Positions 1,598 to 6,598 of a stretch of 64,000 nt of DNA are shown here, in pieces. The stretch comes from Cryomorpha ignava (lineage in GTDB: Bacteria; Bacteroidota; Bacteroidia; Flavobacteriales_F; PHOS-HE28): contig JBEBYG010000006.1 in NCBI GenBank assembly GCA_040391235.1, positions 52,602 to 116,601 of the forward strand. The letters are read 5' to 3'. The position numbers and the translations under genes are program-made. How positions within the stretch are numbered: the first letter of the stretch is position 1; the number at the start of each line of letters is the position of its first letter. A model generated the notes under the pieces. The model did no database searches, was not told the DNA's origin, and was given only the letters and a program-made list of their open reading frames with translations.

Positions 1598-3220
1598 ATG
1601 ATACGTCAACTATGCATTTTTCTGGCCGGTGCCGCAGTGGTACCCGCAATGGCCCAGCTGAACGTGACCACGTCCATGACGCCTGCGCAACTCGTCCAGA
1701 ACGTTCTGGTGGGTGGTGGCGTGTCCGTATCGAATGTCACCTACAACGGTGTGGCCGTTAACCTGCCGCAGGATGGCTCCGGAGCATTCACCAACGGGAA
1801 CTCAACCAACTTGGGCTTGGATGCCGGCTTGATCCTCTCATCGGGACTGGCGTCGAACATCCCTGGCCCTGCTTCCTATTTCGGTAGTGATGTGCTCAAC
1901 ACCGGCTCGGATCCCGATCTGGTGGCGATCACAACTCCAGGAAACTCCATCCAGGACAAGTCCATATTGGAATTCGATTTCGTTCCGAACGGTGATTCCC
2001 TGAAGTTCAATTATGTCTTCGGCTCCGAGGAGTATCCCACCTTCAATTGTAGTTCGAACTACAACGACGTATTCGGCTTCTTCCTGAGCGGACCCGGCAT
2101 TTCCGGCCCATACACCAACAACGCCATTAATATCGCCTTGGTGCCCGGCACGAACCTGCCGGTGGGGATCGCCAACATCCACGGAGCGGACGGCGCTGGA
2201 TGCCCTCCGGCCAACCAAGCATACTACGTCAACAACTCAAGTGGTACCACCATCTCCTTGAACGGCTTTACCACCGTGCTGCGCGCAGAAGCTGCAGTGA
2301 CGTGCGGGCAGACCTACCACATTAAGCTCGCCATCGGTGATGCCGGTGATAACAGCTATAACTCTGCGGTATTCTTGCAGGCCGGTAGCTTCCAGTCCAA
2401 CGTGCTGCCCACCTTGACCGCCAGTACGCTTCACGGTGATGGTACCGCAGCGGAAGGTTGCTTGGGAGGCAACTTCACCATCTATCGCCCGCCCGGAGCC
2501 GATAGTACCTATACCGTGGACTTCTACTTCAGCGGAACAGCCATCCCGGGTGTAGACTTCAACAATATCCCCAGCCCGGCCGTTATTCCGGCTGGCCAGG
2601 ATTCCGTGGTGCTCCCTTTCCAGGCCTTTGAGGATGGAATTGCCGAGGGCATCGAAACGGCCATCATGAACGTATATCTCGTGAATGCCTGCGGTGATAC
2701 CCTCACCAACTCTGTGATATTGGCCATCGTGGACTATCCTGAAATGGTTTTAGATAGTCCCACCCCCTTGTTGTTGCAATGCGATCAGGATTCAATACCC
2801 TTGTTTGCCAGCGTAAGCGGCGGCTTTGGACAGGTCACCATGTACTGGGGCGATTCCATTTATTCGGATCACATCTTCGTGCCAGGCATGGAGAACGGCA
2901 CGTATATCGTCTCAGCCACCGACCAGTGCCCCAAGACGGTGAGCCTGAGCATTGAGGTGGATGCCGGATGCCAGGTCATCATCCCCAACGTGATCACACC
3001 CAACAGTGATGGGCACAACGACAAGTTCGTGATCGAGGGGATCAAAGGCCGGGACAACCACGTCCAGATCTGGGATCGCTGGGGAAAGGAGGTCCTGAAC
3101 GTGAACAACTACCAGAACAACTTTGCCGCCAAGGGACTCCATGATGGAGTCTATTTCTACGTGATCCGGGTCCTGGAAAAGGAGTACACCGGACACCTGC
3201 AGATCTTGGGAAGCAAATAG
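1598..3220 (+). CDS. Secreted protein with an N-terminal choice-of-anchor-L-like domain and a T9SS type-B C-terminal sorting domain
   Basis: Signal peptide MIRQLCIFLAGAAVVPAMAQ. The N-terminal region (LVQNVLVGGGVSVSNVTYNG...GLDAGLILSSG) resembles the choice-of-anchor L domain. The C-terminus IIPNVITPNSDGHNDKFVIEG...IWDRWGKEV...GVYFYVIRV...GHLQILGSK is a type-B CTD. Confidence 0.75.
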   Translation: MIRQLCIFLAGAAVVPAMAQLNVTTSMTPAQLVQNVLVGGGVSVSNVTYNGVAVNLPQDGSGAFTNGNSTNLGLDAGLILSSGLASNIPGPASYFGSDVLNTGSDPDLVAITTPGNSIQDKSILEFDFVPNGDSLKFNYVFGSEEYPTFNCSSNYNDVFGFFLSGPGISGPYTNNAINIALVPGTNLPVGIANIHGADGAGCPPANQAYYVNNSSGTTISLNGFTTVLRAEAAVTCGQTYHIKLAIGDAGDNSYNSAVFLQAGSFQSNVLPTLTASTLHGDGTAAEGCLGGNFTIYRPPGADSTYTVDFYFSGTAIPGVDFNNIPSPAVIPAGQDSVVLPFQAFEDGIAEGIETAIMNVYLVNACGDTLTNSVILAIVDYPEMVLDSPTPLLLQCDQDSIPLFASVSGGFGQVTMYWGDSIYSDHIFVPGMENGTYIVSATDQCPKTVSLSIEVDAGCQVIIPNVITPNSDGHNDKFVIEGIKGRDNHVQIWDRWGKEVLNVNNYQNNFAAKGLHDGVYFYVIRVLEKEYTGHLQILGSK

Positions 3221-3227
3221 CCTGCGG

Positions 3228-4760
3228 TCAGCGGAGATCACTGATCAGTGAACGGCCCGTCATTTCGGCGGGCTGTTCCATTTCCAAGAGGTCCAATAAC
3301 GTTGGGGCTACATCGGCCAAAATGCCATCTCGCACTTGAACGTGCCGGTCGGTAAGTATGATCACCGGTACCGGGTTGAGGGTATGGGCCGTATTGGGCG
3401 AGCCATCCGGGTTCACCGCCTTGTCCGCATTGCCGTGGTCTGCTATCAGGATGAATGACCAGCCCTTTGCGCGACCGGCCTCCACTACCTTCTTGGCGCA
3501 GGCATCAGTGGTCTCCACCGCCTTTACGATCGCTGGGAATACCCCGGTATGACCCACCATGTCGGGATTAGCGAAGTTCAACACCATCAATTGGGTATCC
3601 TCTTCAGCGAATGCCTGCAATGCCGCCTCGGCCACAGCTGGAGCGCTCATTTCCGGTTGCAGGTCGTAGGTGGCCACTTTGGGTGATGGAATGACGTTGC
3701 GCCGCTCCCCCGGGAATGGCTCCTCCCTGCCCCCACTGAAGAAAAAGGTGACGTGCGGATATTTCTCGGTCTCTGCCAAGCGCACTTGTTTTGCTCCCGC
3801 CCGTGAGACCACCTCACCCAGCGTCATGCGCAGGTCCTCTTTCTGAAAGATCACGTCTATCCCTTTGAACGCATGGTCGTACATGGTCATGGTTACATAG
3901 TGGAGCTGCAGGGGTTGCATATCCAGATCGGGGAATGCACGTTGGGTGAGTGCCTCGGTGATCTCGCGGCAACGATCCGTGCGGAAATTGAAACAGATGA
4001 CCACATCACCTGGTCGGATATGGGACAATGCCCGTTCATCCGTTCCAATGATGGCACAGGGCTCAATGAATTCATCGGTAATGCCCTTGGCATAGCTGGA
4101 CTCTATGGCCCAACTCGCGCTGGGGGCCTTATCGCCTGTTCCCCGTACCAACAATTCGTAGGCCTTCTTGATGCGCTCCCAGCGTTTATCGCGGTCCATG
4201 GCATAATACCTCCCACAGATGGTAGCCACCCGTGCAGGGGTCCCCATGATGTCCTGCTCCAGCTTTTGCACGGATCCGAGTCCGCTTTTAGGGTCCGTAT
4301 CGCGCCCATCGGTGAAGGCGTGGATAAAGACATCCTTCAGCCCCGCCTTTTCGGCCAGCTTGCACAAGGCAACCAAATGAGCACTCTTGGCATGTACGCC
4401 GCCATCACCGATCAGGCCCATGAGGTGAAGGCGCTTGCCCGGTGTGGCCGCCACACGGAATGCCTCTTGGAGCACAGGGTTACGCTCCAGTGAACCATCG
4501 GCTATGGCTTGGTCAATACGCACCAGGTCCTGGTACACCACGCGCCCTGCACCGATGTTCAGGTGTCCCACCTCGCTATTGCCCATTTGTCCAACCGGCA
4601 GGCCCACGTTCTCCCCGTCCGTGCGCAAGCTCGCGTGAGGGGCATGTCGCAGTAATCCGTCCATGAACGGGGTTTTTGCTTGGGCAATGGCATCTGTATC
4701 ATCGCCTGCTCCAATACCCCAACCATCCAGGATGATCAGGGCGGTTTTCTTGGTGGTCAT
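3228..4760 (-). CDS. gpmI: 2,3-bisphosphoglycerate-independent phosphoglycerate mutase
   Basis: 510 aa. The N-terminus KTALIILDGWG and the full length are consistent with iPGM. Its start overlaps the upstream histidine-kinase stop by 4 nt. Confidence 0.9.
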   Translation of the reverse strand: MTTKKTALIILDGWGIGAGDDTDAIAQAKTPFMDGLLRHAPHASLRTDGENVGLPVGQMGNSEVGHLNIGAGRVVYQDLVRIDQAIADGSLERNPVLQEAFRVAATPGKRLHLMGLIGDGGVHAKSAHLVALCKLAEKAGLKDVFIHAFTDGRDTDPKSGLGSVQKLEQDIMGTPARVATICGRYYAMDRDKRWERIKKAYELLVRGTGDKAPSASWAIESSYAKGITDEFIEPCAIIGTDERALSHIRPGDVVICFNFRTDRCREITEALTQRAFPDLDMQPLQLHYVTMTMYDHAFKGIDVIFQKEDLRMTLGEVVSRAGAKQVRLAETEKYPHVTFFFSGGREEPFPGERRNVIPSPKVATYDLQPEMSAPAVAEAALQAFAEEDTQLMVLNFANPDMVGHTGVFPAIVKAVETTDACAKKVVEAGRAKGWSFILIADHGNADKAVNPDGSPNTAHTLNPVPVIILTDRHVQVRDGILADVAPTLLDLLEMEQPAEMTGRSLISDLR

Positions 4761-5716
4761 GAGTGCTGTGGGAATATAGCTGTGAAGGTAGAACCATGGG
4801 GCATTACCGCTCGGTATTCCACCCGACCGCCCAGATCCTCCATGAGTCTACGGACGATGAAAAGCCCTAAACCTGTGCCCTTCACGTTCCGGGTGGCCTC
4901 GTTACCTCCGCGATAGAATTTACCGAACATCCGCTGCCTGTCCTCCTCCGGTATACCCGGTCCGTTATCCGTTACCTGAAGAGATACGGCAGCGTCCACC
5001 ACACTAAGCTCCACCTGCACCGTGGAACCCCCGGGTGCGTATTTACAGGCATTGCCGAGGAGGTTCCCCAGAATGGAGCGGAAGGCTATTACATCTGTGT
5101 GCAGGGTCAACGCTGGTGGCAAAAGCACATCGAGTCGATGATCCCGACCATAGGAGGATCGCGCCTCCTCCAATAGTTCCCGGGTTTCCTTTACCACGTC
5201 CACGGGCACCAGGGTGGGAGAGCCAGCATGTTCCTCCAACCGGCTGGCCAAGAGGATCTGTTCGGCCAAGCCATGCAACCGCTCCACATCGGAGCGGGCA
5301 CTGCGTGCAAGCGCTTCACGCTGCAAGGGGTCGAGACCGGGCCGTTGCAGTGTTTGCAAGTGGAGCTTCAGCGCGGCAATGGGTGTGCGCAGCTCATGGC
5401 TGGTGGCCATCAGGAAATCCCTTTGCTGGCGGGCCAAGGAAAGCTCATGTCGCAGGGTGCGGAAGGTGATCCAGAGCGACAGTAAGAGCAGTATCAGAAA
5501 GACCAGTCCTTCACCCACCACCATCATCAACGTGTGCTTGGGCAGCCGGATCGGAAGGTGAGGCACTACGCCCTCTGTGATCAACTGTTGCTGTAAAGCA
5601 AAGATGTCCCGGTCCTTGCTAAGCAATAGCCACATCCACCAAGCTGATTGCAATAGGATGTACAGGACCAAGAAGCCAAAAAGGAGCACCGGGGTGCGAG
5701 GGGCAGGGCGTGCCAT
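4757..5716 (-). CDS. Two-component sensor histidine kinase (2 TM helices, HisKA, HATPase_c)
   Basis: H-box HELRTPIAALKLH. N/G boxes NLLGNACKYAP, DNGPGIPEE, GTGLGLFIV. Two N-terminal hydrophobic helices. No response regulator is adjacent. Confidence 0.85.
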   Translation of the reverse strand: MARPAPRTPVLLFGFLVLYILLQSAWWMWLLLSKDRDIFALQQQLITEGVVPHLPIRLPKHTLMMVVGEGLVFLILLLLSLWITFRTLRHELSLARQQRDFLMATSHELRTPIAALKLHLQTLQRPGLDPLQREALARSARSDVERLHGLAEQILLASRLEEHAGSPTLVPVDVVKETRELLEEARSSYGRDHRLDVLLPPALTLHTDVIAFRSILGNLLGNACKYAPGGSTVQVELSVVDAAVSLQVTDNGPGIPEEDRQRMFGKFYRGGNEATRNVKGTGLGLFIVRRLMEDLGGRVEYRAVMPHGSTFTAIFPQHS

Positions 5717-5819
5717 GGCGCAAAAGTAGAGGCTGCGGCCAATGTCCTCTTCTCCGATGTCCCCTCACCACTGCTGCGGGTAGGCCTGATCCAGCCCCGA
5801 TCTTGTGAGAGGAATTTCC

Positions 5820-5849
5820 AAGGGTATACCCAGTACTGGGTATACCCTT
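5820..5849. promoter_or_regulatory. Perfect 30-bp palindrome (candidate operator) in a divergent intergenic region
   Basis: AAGGGTATACCCAGTACTGGGTATACCCTT equals its own reverse complement. It contains two 10-bp palindromic GGGTATACCC half-sites around a palindromic AGTACT core. It lies about 40 bp upstream of the HD gene start and about 105 bp upstream of the HK start. A TAnnTTTC -7-like element (TACTTTTC) lies immediately 3' of it. Confidence 0.6.
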
Positions 5850-5887
5850 TACTTTTCGTCGCCATATCTTGCACACGGCTTCAATTG

Positions 5888-6475
5888 ATGGATCAACAAG
5901 CAGCAAAGGCCTTCATCCTTGCGGAACTGCATGTCGGCTTGCCCGGGTTGCGTACGTATCACTCGTTGGAGCACACCTTGGATGTGTATGCATCCACTAT
6001 CACCATCGCCGAACAGGAGGGTGTAAAAGGGGAGGACCTGAACTTGCTGAAAACAGCCGCCCTGTTCCACGATGCCGGCTTCCTTGTGCTACCGGACGAT
6101 CATGAAAAAGGAGGCTGCCAACTGGCGAATGAACACCTGCCGCGGTTCGGTTATACGGATGAGCAAGTGGACCGGATCTGTACCATGATCATGGCTACGA
6201 AGATCCCGCAAAAAGCCCACGATCGATTGAGCGAGGTTCTTTGCGATGCAGACCTGGACTACTTGGGTCGGGATGACTTTTTCATGGTGGGTGATCGGCT
6301 CTATGAAGAAATGAGGACCTACGGGACCTTGACCACACGGCAGGAATGGAACCTGTTGCAGGAGAAGTTCATCGCCAACCACTCGTACTATACCGCAACA
6401 TCGCGTGCCTTGCGGGAGCCCATGAAGCAGCAGCATCTCCAGTGGGTGCGTCAGTGGCTTCGCGACAATCCCTGA
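5888..6475 (+). CDS. HD-domain phosphohydrolase
   Basis: Motifs HSLEHTLDV...LFHDAGF...DADLDYLGRD match the HD superfamily metal-dependent phosphohydrolases. The ATG at 5888 is preferred over the TTG at 5885. Confidence 0.75.
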   Translation: MDQQAAKAFILAELHVGLPGLRTYHSLEHTLDVYASTITIAEQEGVKGEDLNLLKTAALFHDAGFLVLPDDHEKGGCQLANEHLPRFGYTDEQVDRICTMIMATKIPQKAHDRLSEVLCDADLDYLGRDDFFMVGDRLYEEMRTYGTLTTRQEWNLLQEKFIANHSYYTATSRALREPMKQQHLQWVRQWLRDNP

Positions 6476-6522: not shown

Positions 6523-6598
6523 TGGTGGTGCCTCCCAGAATCGAACTGGGGACACATGGATTTTCAATCCATTGCTCTACCAGCTGAGCTAAGGCACC
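6523..6598 (-). tRNA. tRNA-Phe (GAA)
   Basis: The reverse complement reads GGTGCCTTAGCTCAGCTGGTAGAGCAATGGATTGAAAATCCATGTGTCCCCAGTTCGATTCTGGGAGGCACCACCA. It has a cloverleaf with a GAA anticodon, a GTTCGATTC T-arm and an encoded CCA. Confidence 0.9.

Follow-up and report, generated by a model that had tools for sequence, protein, structure and literature searches.

What is the 30-bp perfect palindrome that separates two divergent genes of Cryomorpha ignava (GCA_040391235.1) for? The window analysed here is a whole 64,000-nucleotide stretch of that genome (contig JBEBYG010000006.1, positions 52,602 to 116,601 of the forward strand), and the palindrome lies within it in the spacer between a histidine kinase gene, which shares an operon with gpmI, and a gene for an HD-domain phosphohydrolase (hereafter HD). 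An original prediction, made from the letters alone, took it for the operator of a dimeric or tetrameric repressor. We find that the palindrome is a real element with a conserved core, that this core is associated exclusively with the HD promoter, at a fixed distance from it, and that it shows no covariation of the kind expected for RNA. The explanation that best fits these observations is a selected cis-regulatory element, the predicted operator of a symmetric regulator that acts in trans and would repress the HD promoter; we regard this explanation as about evenly balanced between right and wrong. The parts of the element are listed here, where L088 is the related locus with the most similar HD protein.

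5820-5849, no strand: 30-bp perfect palindrome, AAGGGTATACCCAGTACTGGGTATACCCTT, from a reverse-complement check of the window
5827-5842, no strand: conserved 16-bp core, TACCCAGTACTGGGTA, with the form TACCCA-N4-TGGGTA (or TACCC-N6-GGGTA), the proposed site of a symmetric dimer
5820-5826, no strand: left outer arm, AAGGGTA, lineage-specific, differing at 3 of 7 positions in L088
5843-5849, no strand: right outer arm, TACCCTT, lineage-specific, identical in L088, at about -34 to -28 of the predicted HD promoter

The sequence matches its own reverse complement exactly, as first described, and two exact copies of the 10-bp palindromic block GGGTATACCC (5822-5831 and 5838-5847) flank an AGTACT centre. 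The same 30 bp can alternatively be read as four heptamers around a 2-bp centre (AAGGGTA, TACCCAG, TA, CTGGGTA and TACCCTT). The original prediction held a chance origin in 64 kb to be very unlikely, and the statistics agree: the expected number of perfect palindromes of at least 30 bp in the window is 8e-5, and the longest palindrome in 200 first-order Markov simulations is 22 bp. This is the longest perfect palindrome of the window, the runner-up being an 18-bp one at 2047-2064, inside a CHU_C-domain gene (1598-3220) and in the range of simulated random sequence. No second copy of AAGGGTATACCCAGTACTGGGTATACCCTT occurs in the window even when up to 3 mismatches are allowed. The spacer that contains the palindrome recurs without a single difference in two independent Logan assemblies of other samples (L086 and L087; samples ERR11554255 and SRR23622334), which excludes an assembly artefact. 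Directly to the left of the palindrome, GAGAGGAATTTCC (5807-5819) holds a small palindrome of its own (GGAATTTCC / GGAAATTCC); it is kept in L088 as GAGAGGAATTTTC and is missing from more distant relatives.

The conservation of the element was assessed in orthologous loci, gathered by exact-protein look-ups and one metagenome scan, whose DNA upstream of HD was compared; the footprint took in 80 of 529 metagenomic HD loci. The core reads ATACCCAGTACTGGGTAT in the window, GTACCCACTACTGGGTAT in L088 (HD protein 95% identical), ATACCCAATAGTGGGTAA in L089/L090 (80%), ATACCCAGTGGTGGGTAC in L093 (76%), ATACCCAGTAGTGGGTAT in L124 (58%) and CTACCCACAAAGGGGTAT in L119 (57%), and is thus shared by four or more lineages, upstream of HD orthologues with 57-95% protein identity. 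In all six sequences the ten half-site letters TACCC...GGGTA are invariant and the first spacer base is A, while the four bases at the centre of the spacer differ. L124 matches the window at 17 of the 18 core positions, the one exception being a spacer base, although no alignment is possible over the remainder of the spacer. The outer arms, GGGTA to the left and TACCC to the right, are confined to the window and to L088, where the left arm has mismatches; both are missing from L089, L093, L124 and L119. The 30-bp perfection is thus specific to the window lineage. The suggested check in relatives consequently splits in two, with the 30-bp form absent or degenerate and the 16-bp core kept upstream of HD orthologues, and the proposal that the 10-bp GGGTATACCC blocks are the half-sites gives way to a conserved unit, TACCC-N6-GGGTA at 5827-5842, that cuts across them.

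Comparison of the window with L088 localizes the constraint further. All 53 nucleotides from the palindrome centre to the HD ATG are identical, against 533 of 588 in the HD coding sequence, 80 of 104 in the upstream spacer and 11 of 15 in the left arm, and all four differences inside the palindrome fall in that left arm. Because the 53 of 53 exceeds each of the other figures, the core and the promoter-proximal arm are taken to be under purifying selection. Across 522 kb of DNA from the clade loci, TACCCA-N4-TGGGTA with at most one mismatch occurs only at the position upstream of HD and once in a coding region, the latter probably by chance. The window clade comes out as monophyletic when HD proteins are placed in a neighbour-joining tree, and it carries the site except where it has decayed (L091 retains the right half alone, and L094/L174 have CACCC-N5-GGGTA), and L124 and L119 are isolated site-bearing tips amid site-less lineages.

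The position of the core relative to the promoters indicates which of the two divergent genes it serves. Three promoter elements are relevant.

5865-5872, plus strand: predicted HD -7 box, TATCTTGC, of the TAnnTTGY type, conserved across orthologues, with a predicted start at about 5877
5850-5857, plus strand: alternative, weaker -7-like box, TACTTTTC, read from the sequence and confined to the clade at 78% identity or above
5721-5728, minus strand: kinase -7 box, TACTTTTG, abutting the kinase ATG at 5716

TAnnTTGY is a variant of the -7 box of Flavobacterium psychrophilum, where it occupies position -12 to -5 (PMC9723704), and a TAnnTTG(C/G/T) box, given more narrowly as TA(T/C)(C/A)TTG(C/G), lies 10-20 nt before the HD ATG in almost all of 41 aligned orthologous upstream regions. 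Relative to the predicted start the palindrome extends from -57 to -28 and its core from -50 to -35, with the centre at -42.5; if the TACTTTTC box were used instead, the palindrome would span -42 to -13. The original prediction had placed the site where both the -33 and the -7 elements of HD should lie. The overlap with the -33 region stands, but 15 bp separate the palindrome from the conserved -7 box downstream of it (5865-5872), and neither form of the Bacteroidota sigma-A -7 box (TAnnTTTG or TAnnTTGY) lies inside the palindrome. Positions 5840-5850 show neither a TTG nor a TTTG -33 element. An ACACGGC(T) block (window 5873-5887) that immediately follows the HD -7 box is kept in the clade at 71% identity or above as ACnCGG or ACTCAGG; the block and the box both belong to the 53-nt stretch that is 100% identical between the window and L088, above the conservation of the coding sequence.

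A gap of exactly 22 nt lies between the right half-site and the downstream HD -7 box throughout the window clade, and in L124, L119 and L112/L125 this gap is 28-30 nt. The palindrome centre is about 118 bp upstream of the kinase start, and the corresponding distance ranges from about 120 to 250 bp among relatives. Since the distance to the HD box is fixed and the distance to the kinase varies, the element is assigned to the HD promoter only. The idea of a control region shared with the kinase operon therefore holds for the location (the palindrome begins 104 bp from the kinase ATG, close to the 105 bp first given) and not for control of the kinase, which has its own box at 5721-5728. Most orthologues have CAAAGGTAG next to the kinase ATG, as the equivalent of the window's TACTTTTG.

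The kinase promoter has features of its own. Its -7 box (TACTTTTG in the window, TACCTTTG in most of the relatives L097-L127) lies 4-5 nt from the ATG (window 5714-5728). Because the box abuts the ATG, the kinase mRNA is predicted to be leaderless, an arrangement kept across dozens of orthologues; leaderless mRNAs are reportedly rare in Flavobacterium, at about 5% (PMC9723704). In most of the short-spacer orthologues L097-L127 the -7 boxes of kinase and HD stand back to back, about 70 nt before the HD ATG and only 23-27 nt apart, so the divergent promoters of these loci must overlap, with probable competition for polymerase. More than 100 bp separate the two boxes in the window clade.

These observations suggest how the element might act. 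A symmetric transcription factor encoded elsewhere in the genome would control the promoter of the monocistronic HD gene alone, a dimer of it recognizing the inverted half-sites TACCCA and TGGGTA, whose centres are one helical turn apart (5827-5842). The outward extension to 30 bp would add one inverted TACCC/GGGTA element per side and could seat a second pair of subunits, although the outer arms could equally stem from template-switch 'quasipalindrome correction' during replication instead of from selection for extra binding. A protein bound over -57 to -28 would cover the -33 region, and the most likely outcome is that RNA polymerase is kept out and HD repressed. That a protein binds, where transcription starts, the sign of the regulation, the family of the regulator and any use of the outer arms are all predictions from the sequence.

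On the sign of the regulation the evidence points both ways. For repression, the -7 box is equally good in orthologues that lack the site, so the HD promoter looks self-sufficient; the right arm reaches -28; and the site is easily lost. Activation is favoured by a centre at -42.5, by the lack of a visible -33 TTG and by the placement of the L124 and L119 site wholly upstream of -40. Repression is slightly favoured on this evidence. Of the earlier proposal, an operator for a dimeric or tetrameric repressor, the operator part agrees with the conservation of the core at the HD promoter, and its repressor part is plausible; a centre at -42.5 fits a class-II-type activator equally well.

As foreseen in the original prediction, no transcription factor gene adjoins the site. 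A Pfam scan of the 60 open reading frames of the window revealed none, nor did a tblastn search of it for REC, GerE and CsoR sequences; in the absence of a regulator gene nearby, the regulator is taken to act in trans. The original prediction also offered a partner response regulator of the orphan kinase as a possible binder. This is not favoured, because the kinase is of the PhoR-like HisKA class, and partners of such kinases usually bind direct repeats.

Several observations weigh against a repressor operator. Most orthologues, with a kinase-HD spacer of just 50-70 bp, do not carry the site, and among close relatives it has decayed in L091 and L094/L174; it is therefore dispensable. In L124 and L119 it is about 6-7 bp further from the -7 box, with its centre at about -49 and off the -33 region, and as it no longer overlaps -33 a simple occlusion model is weakened. 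No regulator gene was found in the window, in the 10-kb flanks of L176 and L182 or in the other clade loci (522 kb). A second site is likewise lacking in the window and in the 522 kb of clade DNA, and a search of related loci for further regulon members found none, so that a regulon cannot be defined. Finally, part of the conservation of GGGTA could be inherited and not selected. In most orthologues (54-62% identity, 50-70 bp spacer) the kinase -7 box, read on the plus strand, is CAAAGGTA(G) and lies 23-27 nt upstream of the HD -7 box, at the position that GGGTA occupies in long-spacer lineages; the clade at 71-74% identity keeps only AAGGTAT there, and L119 (TACCCACAAAGGGGTA) and L112/L125 (TACCCACTAGGGGTG) are apparent intermediates. 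An ancestral promoter with a back-to-back arrangement may thus have given rise to the right half-site.

Four other explanations have to be set against repression by a trans-acting factor. The strongest is that the site serves activation, a NarL/LuxR-type or CRP/FNR-type dimer at about -42.5 recruiting polymerase in a class-II-type arrangement at a promoter with a poor -33; we think this possible, if on the unlikely side. It draws on the geometry, since TACCCAG-TA-CTGGGTA is a 7-2-7 arrangement in which the outer 5 bp of each half match the NarL site TACCCCTAAAGGGGTA, and on position, since the core centre is 30.5 bp upstream of the -7 box and a site sufficient for NarL lies 32 bp upstream of -10. 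It also fits the lack of a visible TTG or TTTG element at 5840-5850 and the placement of the L124/L119 site wholly upstream of -40, which is more usual for activators. A further parallel is a double CAGGGTATACCCTG palindrome in the Flavobacteriaceae loci L031 and L070, beside an operon of a TPR-HisKA_3 kinase and a GerE response regulator, and a TPR-HisKA_3 kinase also occurs in the 72% relative L176. Yet the -7 box is as good in site-less orthologues, and the promoter is hence apparently activator-independent; the centre moves by 6-7 bp between lineages (from about -42.5 to about -49), the wrong helical phase for a face-specific contact; and the right outer arm at -28 would clash with polymerase if it were occupied. 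Moreover, no GerE or REC gene is found in the window or the clade loci, the adjacent kinase has a HisKA and not a HisKA_3 domain, and position 7 of the heptamer is G, which departs from the NarL consensus TACYYMT.

We consider it quite unlikely that the site is an operator from which HD is repressed by a member of the CsoR/RcnR family, whose proteins are four-helix-bundle tetramers and respond to a metal or a reactive species. CsoR-family operators do share the ATACCC...GGGTAT flavour of the window palindrome, and GGGTATACCC-N5-GGGTATACCC palindromes lie directly upstream of PF02583 genes in L002, L075 and L032; 10-bp blocks like those of the window thus occur as genuine CsoR operator arms, and the two tetramers that bind each operator would suit a long palindrome. 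The spacing does not agree, however: the window, L088, L089, L093, L124 and L119 have TAC-X10-GTA (16 bp) with C3/G3 tracts, whereas all of the CsoR operators compared have TAC-X9-GTA (15 bp). In addition, no PF02583 gene is present in the window or the clade loci, and the target is an HD hydrolase and not an efflux or detoxification gene. The remaining two explanations dispense with a protein-bound operator and are jointly unlikely. The first of these, that the core has no present function and is a relic of a duplicated kinase start/-7-box region (CAT-GCCA-CAAAGGTA) made symmetrical by quasipalindrome correction, is very unlikely. It would fit the position of CAAAGGTA(G) in short-spacer orthologues, where GGGTA is found, together with the intermediate look of L119 and L112/L125, and the confinement of the window-L088 differences to the left arm is consistent with one-sided correction or one-sided decay. 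It leaves unexplained why TACCC stands exactly 6 bp upstream of GGGTA in at least three separate lineages (about 1 in 1000 for each) and why the L124 core is 17/18 identical at 58% protein identity, and template switching accounts for the outer arms but not for conservation of the core. The other, extremely unlikely, is that the palindrome acts in plus-strand RNA, where a 13-bp stem closed by a GUAC loop and followed by UUUACUUUU would form an attenuator or intrinsic terminator. A simple terminator scan does flag the hairpin (13-pair stem, 4-nt loop, tail TACTTTTCGT), which with TTTACTTTT has the form of a GC-rich hairpin followed by a T-run; it is present in the minimum-free-energy fold of the spacer, and a 6-bp version followed by a T-rich stretch occurs in L089 and L093. 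But no co-directional gene or promoter lies upstream that a terminator could serve, the neighbour being divergent with its -7 box pointing away; the conserved HD -7 box is downstream of the hairpin, which is hence outside the HD mRNA; the outer stem is lost in relatives; and L124 has no T tail. Over the six distinct sequences, the five inner pairs of the 13-bp stem never vary and the outer pairs break in other lineages; covariation does not exceed shuffled controls (78 of 500 shuffles reach it), no compensatory changes are seen, and an Rfam covariance-model search of 5600-6000 returned only chance-level matches (E of at least 4, far below gathering scores). The terminator/attenuator reading was rejected on gene context, promoter position and lack of covariation, and the invariant half-site letters around a variable spacer, without covariation, point to recognition by a protein and not to an RNA hairpin.

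Two further candidates were also rejected. A repeat or mobile element, such as a repetitive extragenic palindrome or a miniature inverted-repeat transposable element, does not fit a single copy in the window, which is the part of the genome searched, with none elsewhere in the clade loci. A replication origin or dif site is not indicated by the cumulative GC skew, which is a shallow effect of gene orientation, and the spacer at this place is only 50-70 bp in most orthologues.

The genes around the predicted operator are as follows.

3228-4760, minus strand: gpmI, overlapping the kinase gene by 4 bp, in the same operon
4757-5716, minus strand: PhoR-like HisKA/HATPase histidine kinase (Pfam), a neighbour with no demonstrated part in the mechanism
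between the kinase and HD genes, 171 bp: divergent spacer that holds the palindrome
5888-6475, plus strand: HD-domain phosphohydrolase (Pfam HD), 195 amino acids, the predicted regulated gene
6523-6598, minus strand: tRNA-Phe (GAA), convergent with HD, between HD and coaX

This annotation reproduces the kinase-gpmI operon and the HD gene of the original prediction. CHU_C proteins of type IX secretion encoded in the window, together with the source names of the homologues, point to an uncultured member of the Flavobacteriales. The window has a G+C content of about 56%, and beyond tRNA-Phe the order continues with coaX, a BamG-like gene, lptC and others. Because the downstream tRNA-Phe gene is convergent, HD is a single-gene transcription unit. 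The order of gpmI-kinase, divergent HD and then coaX is kept in every relative examined, and tRNA-Phe lies between HD and coaX in distant relatives as well (L119 3678-3751, L124 2124-2197 and L179 2347-2420); this conserved convergent gene implies that HD and coaX do not form one operon. The HD protein has 4738 homologues, mostly named as proteins of Flavobacteriales metagenome-assembled genomes (MAGs), and matches YpgQ-like 5dqv weakly.

What would such an operator mean? It is an ordinary kind of operator-like element that changes no general picture and opens no long-standing question. To our knowledge almost no transcription factor motifs are established in this group of Flavobacteriales, and the element, if it is an operator, would supply a testable cis-element, TACCCA-N4-TGGGTA, for a little-studied uncultured group, and a regulatory handle on a widespread HD-domain hydrolase that is always back to back with a gpmI-linked histidine kinase. 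A more far-reaching version, which we consider rather unlikely, is that the site is the target of an unrecognised regulator across a family-level clade of uncultured Flavobacteriales, either a NarL/LuxR-type, unlinked partner of the syntenic 'orphan' kinase or a CsoR-family paralogue with a 16-bp operator. In either case a conserved HD phosphohydrolase would be switched by a signalling circuit of its own.

Similar palindromes elsewhere were sought by a GGGTATACCC-N0-16-GGGTATACCC scan of 185,579 species genomes, which returned 85 loci, the window genome not being among them. Most of the 85 are unrelated repeat families or other operators, and two groups were useful for comparison, namely N5 palindromes that are CsoR operators and, in Flavobacteriaceae, an N16 palindrome next to a two-component system of the LuxR type. 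The former have extended arms and lie at L002 5733-5757, L075 3685-3709 and L032 4275-4299, in Oscillospiraceae, Lachnospiraceae and Actinomycetota MAGs; two of these three PF02583 loci continue with a gene for a copper-type P-type ATPase. The latter is a 46-bp near-perfect palindrome, TCTCAGGGTATACCCTGAAT...ATTCAGGGTATACCCTGAGA (L070 6757-6802 and L031 5115-5158), between a nucleoside hydrolase gene and an operon of a small membrane protein, the TPR-HisKA_3 kinase and a REC-GerE protein. It is a candidate site of that LuxR-type regulator, and its link to the regulator of the window core is circumstantial. In Fibrella arboris (L056 1771-1796), GGGTATACCCGAAATAGGGTATACCC has the 26-bp architecture and 6-bp spacing of the window site, in AT-rich intergenic DNA 34 bp upstream of a gene for a SusC-like TonB-dependent receptor, and a related regulator of Cytophagales may bind it. 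The WOR-3 MAG DSBX01 has GGGTATACCC(C/G)GGGTATACCC on nine contigs (L014, L019, L022, L025, L046, L053, L064, L066 and L067), and the shared flanks of the copies (GAGACGGTTGGG... and ...CCTCGTCGGCCG) identify a dispersed repeat family unrelated to the window element. Pairs of GGGTATACCC 12 bp apart occur on many contigs of two Bacteroidaceae gut MAGs (L013, L020, L024, L030, L036 and L041 of JBGVOS01; L027, L029 and L054 of JAFWXS01), at times in tandem (L024), and look like a repeat family or a frequently used site. A literature search for GGGTATACCC, for TACCCAGT/ACTGGGTA and for Bacteroidetes LuxR-type sites produced nothing relevant.

Among known systems, long two-dimer operators and the CsoR family offer partial likenesses to the predicted operator. 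The QacR operator IR1 of the TetR family is a long palindrome bound by a pair of dimers, and regulators of the TetR type usually adjoin their targets. The window palindrome resembles such operators in its length of about 28-30 bp and its overlap with a promoter but differs from QacR in that only the inner 16 bp are conserved, any binding by a pair of dimers being lineage-specific, and in that no TetR-family gene is nearby. With CsoR, RcnR and CstR operators it shares the ATACCC...GGGTAT inverted repeat, the TAC/GTA ends and a position over the promoter that fits repression. In Streptomyces the CsoR consensus reads ATATACCCCTNAGGGGTATAT; its TAC/GTA inverted repeat is essential and an additional GTA/TAC at times lies outside it. 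The CstR operator is ATATACCCTTATGGGGTATAT. In the window the spacing is 1 bp longer, the C/G tracts are shorter, and neither an adjacent csoR-type gene nor a metal-related target is present.

The CRP-type class-II site, a 5-6-5 inverted repeat centred near -41.5, is matched in geometry and in the predicted centre of about -42.5. The half-site is TACCC, in contrast to TGTGA, the centre is at about -49 in L124 and L119, and no cNMP/Crp-type gene is found in the window or the clade loci. Along with the CsoR family, NarL/NarP of Escherichia coli is the other known site type that comes close; the consensus of its heptamers is TACYYMT. As in NarL sites, the core is two inverted heptamers with exactly 2 bp between them (16 bp in all), an arrangement also seen in L088, L089, L093, L124 and L119. 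The heptamers follow the consensus incompletely, at six of seven positions (TACCCA), position 7 being G and not T; positions 1-5 are identical to those of TACCCCTAAAGGGGTA and of the heptamer TACCCCT. The extra heptamers beside the 7-2-7 pair recall multi-heptamer NarL regions. Differences from NarL are the Bacteroidota host with its -33/-7 promoters, the HD hydrolase as target in place of a respiratory gene, and the absence of GerE and REC genes from both the 64-kb window and the clade loci (522 kb). For NarL, TACCCCTAAAGGGGTA is the high-affinity 7-2-7 site and TACCCCT a documented heptamer; one 7-2-7 site centred at -44.5, 32 bp upstream of -10, suffices for activation, NarL sites lie at -40 to -49 in napF and -38 to -47 in yeaR, and a site that overlaps the start can repress. 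Judged by its geometry, the core favours a helix-turn-helix dimer of the NarL/LuxR kind.

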